Virus record (IMG/VR): IMGVR_UViG_2724679138_000003 | Source of the DNA: a virus | Taxonomy: Duplodnaviria > Heunggongvirae > Uroviricota > Caudoviricetes | DNA: 36,469 nt | Direction: 5' to 3' (one strand) | Part shown: one piece after another, positions 25,280 to 30,615 of the stretch | How positions within the stretch are numbered: the stretch's first letter is position 1 | Layout: each line of letters begins with the position of its first letter | Translations under genes and position numbers: made by a program | Notes under the pieces: generated by a model | Database searches by the model: none | What the model was told of the DNA's origin: nothing | What the model saw: the letters and a program-made list of their open reading frames with translations, nothing else

Positions 25280-25303
25280 GTCCGCTTTGAGCGAGGAGCG
25301 GAC
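25280..25303. repeat. 24-bp hairpin element, left boundary of AT-rich island
   Basis: GTCCGCTTTGAGCGAGGAGCGGAC: 7-bp stem GTCCGCT/AGCGGAC. A 22/24-identical inverted copy lies at 27769-27792. Confidence 0.6.
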
Positions 25304-25623
25304 CTTGTGTAAAAATCCCCATACCGGTTGATCGCGCTGAATGTTAGGTTCATAAACGACACAGGGTACATCGTAATGCTGCTCTATTGCTTCGTAAGTG
25401 ATTCCCAATCGCTGCATCACTCGCTGAGAAGGAGTTCGACAACAGCCACTAAATAGTTGTGCATAGAGAACGACTGGAAAAGGCCGTAGGAACTTACAAA
25501 TCTCAATTCACGGTAGAGTATGATATGGGTATTCAATATAAATACAGCCCTCAAAGGTTTAAATATGAACGGAAGTGTTAAAAACAATCTATCGTCAAAA
25601 AAGTACAAGCTAAAAGAAAAATT

Positions 25624-25911
25624 TTGAATTTGAATCGCGAGCTTTCTAATGGAAAGATCACTCAGGCTGATTATTGTCTATACAAAAAACTGTTTGAAGA
25701 CTACATTCAGGTATTAACATTTCAACACACAAGAATTTTTGTGGAAAAAGATTTAATAGAACTATCAAATCATCGAAGTGGAGTATTCATTACAACTCAG
25801 CATGATACATTAGTAAATAGACTTGACAAAATTGATTATGAAATTGACAGATTAAAAAACTGTTTAAATAAAAAAATTATCGATTACACAAAATTCACAT
25901 CCCTATATTAG
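25624..25911 (+). CDS. Questionable AT-rich ORF (95 codons, no in-frame ATG)
   Basis: Track ORF starts at TTG with no SD. A 20-codon ATG ORF with SD (25565-25627) sits upstream in another frame and ends in A-runs. May be a frameshifted gene or non-coding. Confidence 0.25.
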   Translation: MNLNRELSNGKITQADYCLYKKLFEDYIQVLTFQHTRIFVEKDLIELSNHRSGVFITTQHDTLVNRLDKIDYEIDRLKNCLNKKIIDYTKFTSLY

Positions 25912-26004
25912 GATTTTCTAAGAGTACGACACCGTCACATTTAAATATTATTTGTAGAGGTAAAATGACAGCCTGACGGCGGTATTTCATTGCGAAATGC
26001 TATT

Positions 26005-26027
26005 TAAAAGACCGCATTGAGCGGTCT
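26005..26027 (-). terminator. Hairpin terminator downstream of the island ORF pair
   Basis: Minus-strand AGACCGC-tcaat-GCGGTCT followed by TTTAAAT; about 40 nt past the TAG stop at 26064. Confidence 0.5.
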
Positions 26028-26063
26028 TATGTATCTCACAACATATTACAGAATGACTTTAAA

Positions 26064-26819
26064 CTATTGTTTTAATAACATTTCAAAATCCTCATTCCAG
26101 TGCGTGTTTTGTGAAATACGGGTATCAATTTCATCAAGCAGCATATCATGAGAAAGTATGCTTAAAGGGTCATTCCCATTTTTACCAAAACGCATCGTAG
26201 TTTCTGCTATTTCCCAATCTTCTGCGCTGATTGATGGCTGTATTGCATGGCAGTAGATAGCCTTCACATCCTTTTCATGACAGTCAAAATTATTGATGCT
26301 TTCTGCAATTTTACGAGCTCTTTCAATTTCGACAACTGGACCATGTAAAGTTTCATATGATATATGCACAATTGTAGGGGTATTATCTGGAACCTGTCGT
26401 ACCGCTTTGCTTAAGTGCGTTTTAATATCTTTTGCTTTTTTATTAATCGATTCCTCTGCTATACATTCCCAACGAGCACAGTAACCAGAGTGTATTCCAG
26501 TGCAAAAAATGTTAAGTATATCAACACCGTCGTCCGGACCTACTCGTACAAGTCCTTTTGGGGCACAAAGATGAGTGTAATTTTCGCTGCTGCTAAAACT
26601 TCCGGCCAACAACGAAACCATCTGTGGAGAGTTCCATTTAACCATGTATTTATCAAAATGCTCATTGATATTTTTCATATCTATTCTATTAATCAGTATT
26701 ATAATTTCATCATTTTCTATTCTCAGTGACTTTCTCGTCGAGATATTAGACTTTATTTCATTGAAGATTTTTGCTAAAATATATTCATCTGTATCTTTTA
26801 CTTCAACCTTGAAAAGCAC
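26064..26819 (-). CDS. Island ORF B (251 codons), unknown function; possibly the C-terminal part of a gene split by a TAA
   Basis: Same frame as ORF A with only one TAA (26886-26888) and 22 sense codons between them; no ATG or SD of its own (track start is GTG 26819); AT-rich codon usage. Confidence 0.5.
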   Translation of the reverse strand: MLFKVEVKDTDEYILAKIFNEIKSNISTRKSLRIENDEIIILINRIDMKNINEHFDKYMVKWNSPQMVSLLAGSFSSSENYTHLCAPKGLVRVGPDDGVDILNIFCTGIHSGYCARWECIAEESINKKAKDIKTHLSKAVRQVPDNTPTIVHISYETLHGPVVEIERARKIAESINNFDCHEKDVKAIYCHAIQPSISAEDWEIAETTMRFGKNGNDPLSILSHDMLLDEIDTRISQNTHWNEDFEMLLKQ

Positions 26820-26885
26820 GTCTAAAAATATGTTTTGTCTAGACTGAGTTAGAATAGGTACTAAATTGAGCCATCTTTGCCTCCA

Positions 26886-27518
26886 TTATCGACGCTCATT
26901 TTCAGAATATTCAGTCACTTTAGATAAACGCTTACATTCCACAAAAAAGCTTTCTTCACCTTTAGTAACTTTTAAATCAGGAGTTTTATTTAATGCTGTT
27001 TCTGGAATAAATTCTACTCTATAACCATTGCGCGCATACATAATCGCAACAACTAATTCAAACAATGTTGAATCAGGTTGATTTATTTTACCGTTAAGAA
27101 ATTCCGAAAGTTTTTCATCAATCCCAACAATTTTTTTTGCAAGCTCAATATGTCTTCCAACAGCCGCAAAAAAGGGAAATACTCGGGCTGATTGCGCTAA
27201 CTCGCTAACTAAAGGCCGTTCATGTAAGCATTCTACAAGAAAAAGATACCATGCAACCCAATCCTCATGAAATGCCACCCTATTTTTTGGCTCTTCCATA
27301 CTCTTCATTGCTTGGTCAAAATTCTTATAGGTGTTATCTTCCTGTTCTCTGAAGTACTTGACTACATTTTTTTTGCGAGTCTCCCAAGTATCCTTTTCCA
27401 GATAAGATAAAAACCAGTCCAATGCAATTTTCGTATGATGATGCCAGGGACTGGTATCCGTTGCTGCAAAAATCTCTTGTAGTTCTTTTGAATATTCCAA
27501 TGTCTGTGTGTTAGCCAT
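26886..27518 (-). CDS. Island ORF A (210 aa), unknown function with C-terminal PD-(D/E)xK-like motif
   Basis: ATG 27518 with GAGG 6 nt upstream; C-terminal ...LFELVVAIMYARNGYRVEFIPETALNKTPDLKVTKGEESFFVECKRL has helix-E, PD, and hydrophobic-ExK spacing typical of the restriction-endonuclease fold. Confidence 0.6.
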   Translation of the reverse strand: MANTQTLEYSKELQEIFAATDTSPWHHHTKIALDWFLSYLEKDTWETRKKNVVKYFREQEDNTYKNFDQAMKSMEEPKNRVAFHEDWVAWYLFLVECLHERPLVSELAQSARVFPFFAAVGRHIELAKKIVGIDEKLSEFLNGKINQPDSTLFELVVAIMYARNGYRVEFIPETALNKTPDLKVTKGEESFFVECKRLSKVTEYSENERR

Positions 27519-27768
27519 TTTGACCTCATCATTGTTAATTTATGAGATTTTACAACTTATAATGCATCTTCCAGATCGAGCCTCCAAGTAAGAAATCAGG
27601 CTAAATCAGACAGATATGTAATATATCCCTAGTCAATTAGGCAGTCCACCCATAAATCCTAACAGTACGAAAATGGTTGGAACGTTATCCTAGGTTACTG
27701 CTCATCGTTTCCTTATGACCTCAATATATAAATATCCCAGCTCTTGCGGTTCGATTGTATGATTGACA

Positions 27769-27792
27769 GTCCGCTCCTGGCACAAAGCGGAC
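27769..27792. repeat. 24-bp hairpin element, right boundary of AT-rich island (inverted copy)
   Basis: GTCCGCTCCTGGCACAAAGCGGAC; its reverse complement GTCCGCTTTGTGCCAGGAGCGGAC matches 25280-25303 at 22 of 24 positions. Confidence 0.6.
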
Positions 27793-27889
27793 AACCACGC
27801 CAGATCTACCCTGTGCCATGAAAAATGAGAATGTCAATTCACTCCTGAACTAATGCTTTTTAATCTAGTAACGTCTAAAATACCTAACA

Positions 27890-28291
27890 TTATCCCTGAT
27901 AAAATGCCAGTATGCGCTGCATAACTTCACTCATCCGGCACTCGCGACAGATTATGTTTAGGCGACTGTCGTAGCGACGTATTTCTCCATCAGGTAACGA
28001 CCAGATAAGGTCCGGATCAACCACAGCTGTTTTCTTCACCTTTGCCCTCGATAGTTTTTTGCGGGCGTTTTGCCAGTCCTTACGCGCCTGTTCAGACGGG
28101 AATAACCCGTAGCCGGAGTTGTATACATCGCCACTGGCTACCAGCTCTCTGGCAAGAACGCTCATCAGATATCTAGTCGCACCTGTTTTAGCTTCCAGTT
28201 GCCGTAACGTCTCACGACCACTCTGGCGCACGAGTTCCACCACCTGCCCTTTAATTTTTTCCCGCTCTTCTTGTGTAAAAACTTTTGCCAC
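27890..28291 (-). CDS. Hypothetical protein downstream of replication initiator (133 aa)
   Basis: GTG start at 28291 with GGGGG upstream; occupies the slot where lambda P (helicase loader) would sit but is far too small to be P or DnaC. Confidence 0.45.
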   Translation of the reverse strand: MAKVFTQEEREKIKGQVVELVRQSGRETLRQLEAKTGATRYLMSVLARELVASGDVYNSGYGLFPSEQARKDWQNARKKLSRAKVKKTAVVDPDLIWSLPDGEIRRYDSRLNIICRECRMSEVMQRILAFYQG

Positions 28292-28331
28292 AAGTCCCCC
28301 TTAAAATTACCTCATGACCTGAAATCAAAAC

Positions 28332-29297
28332 TTATCCTCTGAAACCAGGCGGAATTTCTGTATCCGGTTCAGAAATATGATTCACACAACGCTGTACAGG
28401 TGAACGTCCCAGGCGGATGACCAGTTCGTCCCATTTTTCGCGGAGTTTTGACGGGCTCATGATGTTTTTTACCCAGAATGGATCCCGCTGTACCCGACCA
28501 AACATTTCGCAAATTTGTCTGTGGCTTCTGCCATCCAGCATCCGCATTGTGCGCACGTCATTGGCCCAGGCTGTCCAGTTAGGCTCTTTTGGTCGCATGA
28601 TCTCTCCATCGTCGCTGGCAGCCTGTTCGTAAAGGTTCACGATCCGCCCCCAAATCCACTGCGCACACGCCAAATCCTCCCTGCTACCCCACTGGCGTTT
28701 TTTCACACTAAACACAACCGCGTCGGGGTTCCGAGTTAAAAAATCCTGTTCAGTCGTCTGCGGGTCCGGTTGCGAAGCTTCCGGACGAAAAGTGTTTTTA
28801 TTCTCTGTAGTAATCTCTGTTGTATTCTCTGTAAGATCATCAGGCCATTTTGACCCGATGACATTGGGTCGTTTTGAACCAATGGAGCGTTTCATTTTGA
28901 CCTCTTCCATCGTGTCATTTTGACCTGATGGAGCGGCGCATTTTGAACCGATGGATTCGTTCAATTTGCCACCATCTAAAAGCTCGCTCCCATAGTTGAT
29001 CGTGTAGAAATTGGTCATATCGCGCTTTGATTTATTGAGCTTTTCACAACGCAAAAGCCCCAGCGTTTTCAGACTTGCAAACGCGCGCTTTAACGTTGAC
29101 TCTGACCAGAATGGGAACTGTTCCAGCCATTGTTCCGTTGTGTTGTAAATCCAGCGAACACCATCACATTCCATGCCGGAATTGGTATCTCTCAACCAGT
29201 AATGCAACTGCTGCAACACAATGGCTTCATTTAAGCCAATCTTCATCGCAAGCTGTGTGTTTATAACCAGTGGGCGTTCAGCAAAAAGAAGGCTCAT
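28332..29297 (-). CDS. Replication initiator protein (lambda O-like) with internal origin iterons
   Basis: N-terminal helix-turn-helix-like region; six ~23-bp direct repeats inside the coding sequence, as in ori-lambda within gene O. Start is uncertain (ATG 29297 or TTG 29351). Confidence 0.7.
   Translation of the reverse strand: MSLLFAERPLVINTQLAMKIGLNEAIVLQQLHYWLRDTNSGMECDGVRWIYNTTEQWLEQFPFWSESTLKRAFASLKTLGLLRCEKLNKSKRDMTNFYTINYGSELLDGGKLNESIGSKCAAPSGQNDTMEEVKMKRSIGSKRPNVIGSKWPDDLTENTTEITTENKNTFRPEASQPDPQTTEQDFLTRNPDAVVFSVKKRQWGSREDLACAQWIWGRIVNLYEQAASDDGEIMRPKEPNWTAWANDVRTMRMLDGRSHRQICEMFGRVQRDPFWVKNIMSPSKLREKWDELVIRLGRSPVQRCVNHISEPDTEIPPGFRG
28846..28984. repeat. Origin of replication iterons: six tandem ~23-bp repeats (consensus CATTTTGACC-N-GATGGAGCG)
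   Basis: Repeat cores at 28846, 28870, 28893, 28916, 28939 and 28962 (CATTTTGACC / CGTTTTGAACC / CAATTTGCC), adjoined by TTCTCTGT repeats at 28801-28835. Confidence 0.65.
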
Positions 29298-29799
29298 AAT
29301 TCCATCCAGCTTTTTGTTGGTATTGCTGTCGATACGCAAGTTTGAAAGCAATTGCTTTTTCTATAAGTTCGTCAGTTTCACGATCCACTACGGCAGGATC
29401 AGCAAAAAGCAGTCCGGACTCCACCACATCGCCATATTCTTTGTTTAACCCGGCGATCATGTACGTGATGCTTTTTCCGTCACTAATTTCACGATACAAC
29501 CTGAAATCATTAATCCGGATAGCCTCCATAATTGCAGGCACTAGCGCCGTGAACTTTTCACGCTTATCCCTAGTGTCGATAGCCTTCCAGCGTTCGAATA
29601 TCTTCACTCGATTAACGCCAAGCGCTCGCTGATCAACCGCGCCACCTTCATCTGTGACACGCTGAACATCGATGTTCGGGCGCTCTTTCAAAGCCCAGAA
29701 TGCTTCAGTGATTAATATCGTCGCCTGCTCCTGTGTCATTCCTGGTCGACATATCCAGGCATCCAGAGCCTCACGAGCCTGTTCAGGAGTGATTTTCAT
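29278..29799 (-). CDS. Early-region protein between Cro-like gene and replication initiator (possible CII/YdaT-like regulator)
   Basis: 173-aa ORF overlapping the DicC-like 3' end by 17 nt; function not recognizable from sequence. Confidence 0.45.
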   Translation of the reverse strand: MKITPEQAREALDAWICRPGMTQEQATILITEAFWALKERPNIDVQRVTDEGGAVDQRALGVNRVKIFERWKAIDTRDKREKFTALVPAIMEAIRINDFRLYREISDGKSITYMIAGLNKEYGDVVESGLLFADPAVVDRETDELIEKAIAFKLAYRQQYQQKAGWNYEPSFC

Positions 29800-30010
29800 T
29801 GTTCAACCGCCCCGCCCGCTTCGTCTTACGATATTCGTCATAAACCTTGGGATCATACAGAAGCTCGCCGCCAGATGCCTCCTGTAGACGCATCGCGCGA
29901 CCTTCAGGAACCAGCTCTTGCCATTGAGAAACAGCAGATGGGTCAACGCCAGCAGCTTTCGCTACTTTGGCTTTCGTACCGTAAAAATTAATTACGTCTG
30001 ATTTAAACAT
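29783..30010 (-). CDS. dicC: Cro-like regulator (DicC-like)
   Basis: About 75 aa from ATG 30010 (GGAGG 4 nt upstream): MFKSDVINFYGTKAKVAKAAGVDPSAVSQW... (HTH); divergent from the DicA-like repressor. Confidence 0.65.
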   Translation of the reverse strand: MFKSDVINFYGTKAKVAKAAGVDPSAVSQWQELVPEGRAMRLQEASGGELLYDPKVYDEYRKTKRAGRLNNENHS

Positions 30011-30087
30011 CGCACCTCCAATATTGAGTTTTCTCAATGCTAATCACTCAAGGAATCTCAAGTCAAGGGTTATTAAGATATCTAAAT
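30011..30087. promoter_or_regulatory. Divergent promoter/operator region between dicC-like and dicA-like genes
   Basis: 77-bp intergenic spacer containing the palindrome TTGAGTTTTCTCAA (30024-30037) and CTCAAGGAATCTCAAG. Confidence 0.5.
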
Positions 30088-30495
30088 ATGAACGAGAAAA
30101 CTTTAGGTCAACGCATTAGAGAAAGACGTAAGCAGGTAGGCTTAAGTCAAAACGGTTTAAGCAAAGCTGCTGGCGTATCTGGCTCATCAATTTCATTATG
30201 GGAAAGTGACCATACAGCCCCGCGCGGGCAAAATTTGCATCGCCTCGCCGAGGTATTGCAATGTTCACCAACCTGGATACTGTTTGGCGACGAGGACAAA
30301 ACACCAGCTCCCCCTGTTTCACTCGATAGTGCCTTAGACTTATCGGAAGATGAGTTAGAGATGCTGCGTTTGTATCGCGCACTTCCTAAATCAGAGCAAC
30401 AAGCACAACTCAGCGAACTCCGCGCCCGCGTTGAGAATTTTAATCGCCTGTTCACCGAGCTATTAGAGGCTCGCAAACGCAACAAGCATCAATAA
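30088..30495 (+). CDS. dicA: Prophage repressor (DicA-like, HTH_XRE)
   Basis: 135 aa, MNEKTLGQRIRERRKQVGLSQNGLSKAAGVSGSSISLWE... (XRE HTH); gene order dicC-dicA-ydfA...dicF-dicB as in K-12 Qin. Confidence 0.75.
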   Translation: MNEKTLGQRIRERRKQVGLSQNGLSKAAGVSGSSISLWESDHTAPRGQNLHRLAEVLQCSPTWILFGDEDKTPAPPVSLDSALDLSEDELEMLRLYRALPKSEQQAQLSELRARVENFNRLFTELLEARKRNKHQ

Positions 30496-30554
30496 TCATC
30501 CCTTCACAAAATTTTAAAGCCTTACATTTCAATGTATTGGCTTTATCTTGCGCC

Positions 30555-30615
30555 AATACTTGAGTTTTCTCATCAAAAAACCTTGACGAAAAATAATGAG
30601 AAAACTAAATTACTT
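30555..30615 (+). promoter_or_regulatory. Promoter and operators of the ydfA-dicF-dicB operon
   Basis: TTGACG (30583-30588), 17-bp spacer, TAAATT (30606-30611); operator-like TGAGTTTTCTCA at 30561-30572 and inverted copy TGAGAAAACTAA at 30597-30608. Confidence 0.5.

Follow-up and report, generated by a model that had tools for sequence, protein, structure and literature searches.

A loader-less lambdoid replication module whose initiator ends in a DnaT-like tail

Organization of the replication module

We analysed a stretch of viral DNA of 36,469 nucleotides (nt), the IMG/VR record IMGVR_UViG_2724679138_000003 (Caudoviricetes), here called the window, which is a prophage extending from tail genes to the integrase. 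The region considered here is the early-right operon of this lambdoid prophage, on the minus strand. It contains a replication initiator of 321 amino acids (aa), followed after only 40 nt by an open reading frame (ORF) of 133 aa with a GTG start codon. The initiator ends in a short sequence that resembles the C-terminus of the Escherichia coli primosomal protein DnaT, here called the DnaT-like tail. The principal features are the following (HTH, helix-turn-helix; AF2, AlphaFold2; pLDDT, predicted local distance difference test).

28332–29297, minus strand: replication initiator, 321 aa plus stop; phrog_391 "replication initiation O-like", E = 2e-92
28998–29258, minus strand: predicted N-terminal winged-helix DNA-binding domain of the initiator, residues 14–100; local pLDDT 62–80 in the AF2 model
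28838–28953, no strand: putative origin iterons, five units with a period of 23–24 bp and the core ATYGGTTCAAAAYG; found by repeat search inside the linker-coding DNA
28796–28834, no strand: A/T-rich 24-bp direct repeat (TACAGAGAATA...) adjoining the iterons, candidate unwinding element; found by repeat search, local GC content 0.38
28410–28751, minus strand: helical C-domain of the initiator, residues 183–296; tblastn/blastp with lambda O, AF2 helices at 206–296
28335–28397, minus strand: DnaT-like tail, residues 301–321, VQRCVNHISEPDTEIPPGFRG-COOH; 14 of 20 residues identical to E. coli DnaT 160–179
28292–28331, no strand: spacer of 40 nt from the initiator stop to the DUF977 start; read from the sequence
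27890–28291, minus strand: 133-aa GTG-started ORF, DUF977/Ren-like winged-HTH protein; PF06163 E = 6e-27, phrog_142 E = 1.9e-44

The initiator ORF is readable from a TTG at 29351 (28332–29351, 339 aa), and relatives are annotated from the ATG at 29297, yielding 321 aa. The spacer is too short for any gene and contains no remnant of a loader; an AAGGGGG Shine-Dalgarno sequence within it lies ahead of the GTG of the 133-aa ORF. An earlier note on this DNA had described the initiator as followed by this ORF, with no recognizable helicase loader, and the ORF listing, the six-frame searches and the annotations of relatives all agree with that description. Using tblastn with E. coli DnaC, Rac YdaV and lambda P in six frames, we detected none of these sequences anywhere in the window (best E = 0.13), so that a loader elsewhere in the prophage, which the note had asked about, was not found either. 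Specifically, neither a P-type loader adjoining the initiator (best tblastn E for lambda P in the window 0.16) nor a DnaC-like AAA+ gene directly downstream of it is present in the window. The prophage of E. coli EC93 is near-identical to the window (99.5% over 10 kb), and no loader, helicase or primase is listed in its annotation by the Prokaryotic Genome Annotation Pipeline (PGAP) or in the annotation of the whole genome of phage HannyBb.

The region is best explained as a complete, loader-less ("initiator-only") lambdoid replication module. Its layout is that of lambda O-P-ren minus P or, equivalently, that of Rac ydaU-ydaV-ydaW minus ydaV, and it is thus a variant of known modules.

A DnaT-like tail on many different initiators

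The tail, 70% identical to the end of DnaT, is located at the extreme C-terminus in both proteins and is the only detectable sequence that DnaT and the window initiator have in common. When the initiator was compared with DnaT by hhalign, only the last 21 residues aligned (probability 92.6, E = 4.6e-7), and the NCBIfam DnaT equivalog matched residues 302–321 only, with 16 bits against a cut-off of 201. We rejected a DnaT-like domain upstream of the tail, as Pfam, BLASTP and hhalign all align the last 20–21 residues only. The three-helix bundle of DnaT (PF17948) was not found in the initiator, even with the C-terminal 142 residues searched alone at E-values up to 10. Because there is no significant BLASTP similarity to DnaT outside the tail, neither the N-domain nor the acidic linker of DnaT can be detected in the initiator. 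Judged by its sequence, the window initiator does not appear to be a DnaT, and the RAST label "Primosomal protein I" on a phage copy is due to the DnaT-like tail. In the AF2 model, the tail is predicted to be disordered.

We scanned viral contigs for back-translated IPPGFRG followed by a stop codon and obtained 120 matches, all of them in-frame C-termini. In 119 of these, IPPGF is preceded by P-[DE]-x-x, which lies outside the query pattern. Among 67 distinct coding sequences, the proline at position –10 is present in all and the aspartate at position –9 in 66, each with 3 codon variants and neither being part of the search pattern; the tail is under purifying selection. The diversity came from this DNA pattern scan, the homologues from protein searches all being at least 92% identical for the DUF977 protein and at least 68% identical for the initiator. 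With the tail removed, the tail-bearing proteins fall into at least nine clusters, with the window initiator in the lambda-O-like cluster 0. Ahead of the tail are domains of at least four kinds: a lambda-O-like domain, a type characterized by "EYP..RAGANPKK", the YdaU type, and a complete DnaT C-domain. One member of the YdaU type carries a lambda-O N-domain.

The complete DnaT C-domain was found in loci L133 and L142, in ORFs of 271 and 275 aa, with 63% identity to DnaT 86–157 ahead of the tail. Such proteins seem to connect the phage initiators with the host dnaT gene. At both loci, a RuvC-like gene follows, and no loader was detected within the downstream sequence scanned.

In a scan of a single genome from each species, the matches listed comprise 51 true tails, all of them from Enterobacterales and mostly in DnaT, and 69 chance matches; this is only indicative of a restriction of the tail to Enterobacterales. 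A 30-residue tail query against 1.84 billion representatives returned 16 matches, mostly fragments, 14 of which had the tail at the protein C-terminus.

Association of the tail with DnaC-type loaders

The tail is present on 77 of 78 initiators encoded directly upstream of YdaV-like loaders (27 distinct sequences) and on 0 of 76 initiators directly upstream of lambda-P-like loaders (42 distinct sequences), both sets consisting of close relatives (≥97%) of only two loader queries, Rac YdaV and lambda P, and hence of non-independent cases. In the single YdaV-linked exception (one of loci L409–L488), the motif is followed by three extra residues (...IPPGFRGNRP), the only non-terminal motif seen. 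The YdaV-like phage loaders are 48–52% identical to host DnaC over their full length.

The same neighbourhood is found in the hosts, where dnaC is the gene immediately after dnaT in all 36 enterobacterial genomes for which enough sequence was available. The dnaT sample also included five longer tail-bearing ORFs of 225–350 aa, four of them of prophage-initiator size, and a DnaC-like gene comes next in all five. This consistent pattern suggests that a tail-bearing protein is normally encoded beside a DnaC-type loader, with the loader-less class as the exception. The tail is linked to DnaC-type loaders, and the phage loader gene is optional.

Distribution of the loader-less junction

We identified 80 viral contigs encoding an initiator with 92% or more identity to that of the window, and 70 of these contigs were classifiable. 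The initiator is joined straight to the DUF977 gene in 51 of the 80, and a YdaV-like loader lies between the two genes in 19. The exact 40-nt spacer recurs in 48 of the 51 loader-less close relatives. We also searched 5426 complete E. coli genomes with a 3-kb query across the initiator-DUF977 junction, and in 560 of them at least 80% of this query was matched. Three records of complete phage genomes have the loader-less arrangement as well: mEp460_ev081, HannyBb, which is from bird faeces, and PhiR42_1, whose host is ECOR13. At the DNA level, the initiators of mEp460_ev081 and HannyBb are 99.6% and 98.4% identical to that of the window, respectively. The synteny comparison proposed in the earlier note hence revealed a common junction that is not strain-specific.

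In the loader-bearing relatives L173 and L201, whose initiator is 93% identical, DNA homology to the window is lost from the initiator stop codon onwards and regained in DUF977. A mosaic boundary of this kind, where two genes meet, is nothing unusual. The loader-less arrangement is a frequent and apparently functional variant.

In many loader-bearing modules, among them L201, L139 and L178, a long YdaW-like protein (phrog_630; ORFs of 239–273 aa with two HTH-like repeats) is encoded between YdaV and DUF977. Since this gene is absent together with the loader in the loader-less modules, gain and loss seem to affect both genes together.

Domains of the initiator and a putative origin

The best Foldseek matches of the predicted N-domain in the PDB are the N-domains of staphylococcal plasmid RepA proteins (4pql, 4pt7 and 5kbj), although these matches are weak (E = 0.012, probability 1.0). 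Pfam Phage_rep_O (PF04492), which lambda O matches at 5.7e-36, gave no match on the window initiator. Residues 109–177 form a linker that AF2 predicts to be disordered. Residues 147–294 align with lambda O 135–270 at 34% identity over 148 residues (E = 1e-22 to 2.5e-27). The part of lambda O homologous to the C-domain binds P, as the P-DnaB complex.

The pattern of the iteron core has four matches in the whole window, all within 28838–28953. The location of the iterons and of the A/T-rich stretch inside the initiator gene parallels the layout of ori-lambda inside gene O, according to the lambda annotation. DnaA boxes are not enriched, with 6 in the window against 3.4 expected, and no canonical box lies near the iterons.

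The 133-aa protein

The earlier note had called the 133-aa ORF a protein of unknown function and had suggested a homology search for loader or primosome families. What it matches is DUF977: against PF06163 it scores 94.8 bits (cut-off 22.1), with residues 1–133 on profile positions 1–131 of 134. It also falls in phrog_142, "Ren-like exclusion protein", the same PHROG as lambda Ren (E = 1.6e-41). The alignment with Ren comprises the N-terminal HTH region and a C-terminal N-I-I-x-x-E-C-R-x-S-x-x-M-x-R-x-L-A-x-Y block, and by hhalign the last 30 residues are 40% identical to Ren (E = 3e-5, probability 72). In lambda, ren follows directly after P (lambda annotation). The 133-aa ORF is the positional and sequence counterpart of lambda ren; in some phage records it is named "LygF".

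Searching for loader families (DnaC/IstB AAA+, lambda P, DciA, DnaI and gp59), we obtained no match of the 133-aa protein in Pfam, PHROGs or PADLOC and none below E = 0.1 among PDB sequences. Its AF2 model, built on a shallow alignment, is a winged HTH with a mean pLDDT of 72 (above 80 for residues 1–80). The closest structures in the PDB are GntR-, MarR- and IclR-type domains with weak Foldseek E-values, and no loader fold was among the top 50 matches, which consisted of winged-HTH regulators and winged-helix domains of methyltransferases.

The DUF977 gene is kept downstream of the loader where a loader is present, both in Rac (ydaU-ydaV-ydaW) and in viral contigs with the order initiator, YdaV-like, long YdaW-like, then DUF977. 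The 133-aa protein is unlikely to substitute for a loader because its gene still lies downstream of the loader in the loader-bearing modules. It is best explained as an accessory DUF977 winged-HTH protein acting outside helicase loading, as far as sequence and predicted fold indicate. We found no mechanistic literature on DUF977/YdaW/LygF or on ydaU/ydaV, having scanned mainly titles and abstracts.

Most DUF977 homologues are 140–141 aa long and end with ...FYQGNFQEVxx. The proteins of the window and of mEp460_ev081 end 7–8 residues sooner, at ...FYQG (3′ end at 27890–27915). As the homology to HannyBb breaks at ~27894, a mosaic junction lies inside the last DUF977 codons.

Comparison with known systems

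Compared with lambda O-P-ren, the window has the same order of initiator, (loader) and ren-like gene, a putative origin in the initiator gene between its two domains, and a C-domain that is 34% identical. It differs in the absence of P, in an N-domain that is not Phage_rep_O, and in its DnaT-like tail, lambda O ending with ...DWIYGVDL.

With the Rac module, the window shares Cro/YdaS-like and YdaT-like regulators, a DUF977-type gene downstream and the tail, in which YdaU also ends (...VNTVSLPDSAIPPGFRG); the window initiator has the Rac-type ending ...PD..IPPGFRG. The window lacks the DnaC-like ydaV and the long YdaW-like gene (phrog_630), and whereas Rac YdaU is a DUF1376 protein, the N- and C-domains of the window initiator belong to other families.

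The likeness to E. coli dnaT-dnaC consists in the last 20 residues, which are 70% identical, and in the arrangement of a tail-bearing protein directly upstream of a DnaC-type loader, which is the rule in hosts and phages. Unlike DnaT, the window protein lacks PF17948 and is predicted to be an origin-binding initiator, not a restart adaptor.

Phage modules of an "initiator-solo" type were reportedly described by Weigel and Seitz in FEMS Microbiol Rev in 2006; we found the term 0 times in the literature searched. Such modules and iteron plasmids resemble the window in combining one element-encoded initiator and an origin with a helicase and a loader from the host. In classic iteron plasmids, recruitment proceeds via DnaA and via contacts of Rep with DnaB, whereas in the window the candidate handle is the DnaT-like tail and there is no DnaA-box cluster.

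Brezellec et al. (2017, PMC5509034) described DopC, a protein derived from lambda O in which a "DnaT C-ter motif" replaces the O C-domain. The dopC gene is chromosomal and domesticated, lacks iterons and has a P-like partner, DopE. The window protein, in contrast, is a phage initiator with iterons that keeps the O-like C-domain and has no loader partner. It follows from the DopC motif that the grafting of the DnaT C-terminal element onto O-like proteins was already known (PMC5509034).

Flanking genes and the AT-rich island

Around the replication genes, the following features were assigned.

30037–30495, plus strand: CI-like HTH repressor, divergently transcribed; PF01381 E = 2e-15
29783–30037, minus strand: Cro/YdaS-like regulator; PF14549 P22_Cro E = 4.5e-16
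29278–29799, minus strand: YdaT/CII-like regulator, upstream of the initiator; PF06254 E = 1.2e-5, phrog_163 E = 2e-40
26064–27518, minus strand: gene of the AT-rich island, outside the module; 484-aa ORF split into 210 and 251 aa, both halves phrog_37220

A scan for promoters and terminators from 25300 to 30600 yielded no more sites than shuffled sequence.

The AT-rich island begins downstream of the 133-aa ORF, with a GC content down to 0.30–0.41 across ~25500–28000. Homology to the window ends at ~27894 in HannyBb and at ~27769 in mEp460_ev081, with different DNA beyond in each phage. The island gene is split by a TAA nonsense codon at 26886–26888, a single G-to-T change at 26888 relative to the intact EC93 ORF (WP_032341362), and has a weak Mrr_cat/PD-(D/E)xK-like match. 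PADLOC returned nothing meaningful for the island gene or the 133-aa ORF. A 95-aa ORF at 25624–25911 (plus strand) is oriented opposite to its neighbours in the most AT-rich stretch (GC 0.30); searches of Pfam (best E = 0.028, below the cut-off), PHROGs and PADLOC gave nothing significant for it.

In the EC93 locus L004 (7705–9880), the prophage lies beside rspB-rspA, with the integrase adjacent, and four of its tail genes are frameshifted or incomplete according to PGAP. This prophage copy may be decaying despite its intact replication module.

Possible routes of helicase loading

We propose that the initiator would bind the iterons of its own gene through the winged-helix N-domain and open the adjacent A/T-rich stretch. 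Its C-terminal end, comprising the lambda-O-like domain and the DnaT-like tail, would recruit host DnaB-DnaC, and host DnaC would load DnaB, so that a phage loader gene would not be needed. The YdaV-like DnaC paralogue of the sister phages would be an optional addition. The loader-less initiator thus probably borrows host DnaC via its DnaT-like tail. The use of host DnaC had been among the possibilities raised in the earlier note; the tail and its tracking of DnaC-type loaders favour it, at the level of inference. More tentatively, the 20-residue tail of DnaT could be a docking motif for DnaB-DnaC or for DnaC-family loaders that was grafted onto many unrelated lambdoid initiators of Enterobacterales, and whose bearers can drop their own DnaC paralogue and plug their origin into the host loader. 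This broader idea is possible, although we would not call it probable. In the 2026 preprimosome models, the DnaT C-domain spans residues 84–153, no partner is assigned to the tail and the recruitment of DnaB/DnaC is left unexplained (PMC13377028). The published record leaves room for a tail mechanism because the tail has no assigned partner there.

Several points weigh against this proposal. Contact of the tail with DnaC and/or DnaB, as well as loading by host DnaC, is something we infer. By analogy with DnaA, the element that the authors of the preprimosome models suggest as recruiter of DnaB/DnaC is the N-domain of DnaT and not the tail (PMC13377028). Removal of DnaT 154–179 leads to ~two-fold weaker binding of single-stranded DNA (ssDNA) (PMC4132743), and the tail might instead help in DNA binding. 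The loader-linked counts come from the non-independent sets described above. The AF2 model of the initiator is of low overall confidence (mean pLDDT 54.7), and only its N-domain gave interpretable, if weak, fold matches. Finally, lytic and lysogenic growth has been confirmed for the mEp focus phages in general, with ev081 unmentioned (bioRxiv 10.1101/2022.06.30.498228).

Two alternatives retain loading by host DnaC. In one, the tail docks on PriA or PriB, the initiator replaces or recruits the restart proteins, and the restart primosome loads DnaB with host DnaC. The known partners of DnaT, with which the tail is shared, are PriA, PriB and ssDNA, and the initiators of L133 and L142 carry a whole DnaT C-domain (63%) with no loader gene nearby. 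However, PriA is contacted via the three-helix bundle of DnaT (84–153) and PriB via the acidic linker, and the window initiator has neither; the tail also tracks DnaC-type loader genes closely. We consider this route unlikely. A comparably low probability attaches to the other alternative, in which DnaB-DnaC is brought in, as happens in iteron plasmids, by host DnaA or by the lambda-O-like C-domain, while the tail does no more than help to hold the unwound ssDNA. Recruitment of this kind agrees with the homology of the C-domain to the P-DnaB-binding part of lambda O. The proposed role of the tail agrees with the lowered ssDNA affinity and cooperativity of DnaT after tail deletion (PMC4132743). 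Yet the lack of DnaA-box enrichment and of a canonical box at the origin speaks against DnaA, and the tail is retained by initiators in which four unrelated domains precede it but is absent from P-paired lambda-O-type initiators, a pattern more in keeping with docking on a specific partner than with general assistance in ssDNA binding.

The remaining two alternatives do not involve loading by host DnaC. The 133-aa DUF977 protein could be a new small helicase adaptor or loader replacing P or DnaC, along the lines of the non-canonical adaptor envisaged in the earlier note, and its gene is indeed always found just downstream in the replication operon. Nevertheless, it belongs to the PHROG of Ren, has a generic winged-HTH fold and no loader match, and is retained downstream of the DnaC-like YdaV as well as in Rac (ydaW), making such a role very improbable. 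It is just as hard to believe that a loader was lost by deletion or, as also suggested before, displaced by insertion of the island, leaving a prophage that no longer replicates alone. About a quarter of the close relatives do keep a YdaV-like loader, and the nonsense mutation in the island gene together with the frameshifted EC93 tail genes amounts to some decay. The island, however, is located downstream of DUF977, and the 40-nt junction is identical in 48 of 51 relatives and found in phages with other downstream DNA; the arrangement recurs in the three phage records and 560 E. coli genomes, and the initiator, the iterons and the tail are all intact.

Significance of the DnaT-like tail

As a gap in the gene map, the missing loader is ordinary, since loader-less lambdoid modules are frequent and can be explained without a new protein. 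Two annotations should be corrected: the label "Primosomal protein I" on such initiators reflects the tail alone and is hence misleading, and the adjoining "LygF" or "hypothetical" gene is a Ren-family gene. The tail is the more useful result, as a short motif that is not resolved in the 2026 preprimosome structure and that travels with DnaC-type loaders. We found no mention, in the literature searched, of a link between this motif and DnaC-type loaders, of its occurrence on many phage initiators or of the phage loader being optional. The tail hypothesis is simple and testable. If it is true, the comparative genomics of phages would identify the element that hands the restart primosome over to DnaB-DnaC.

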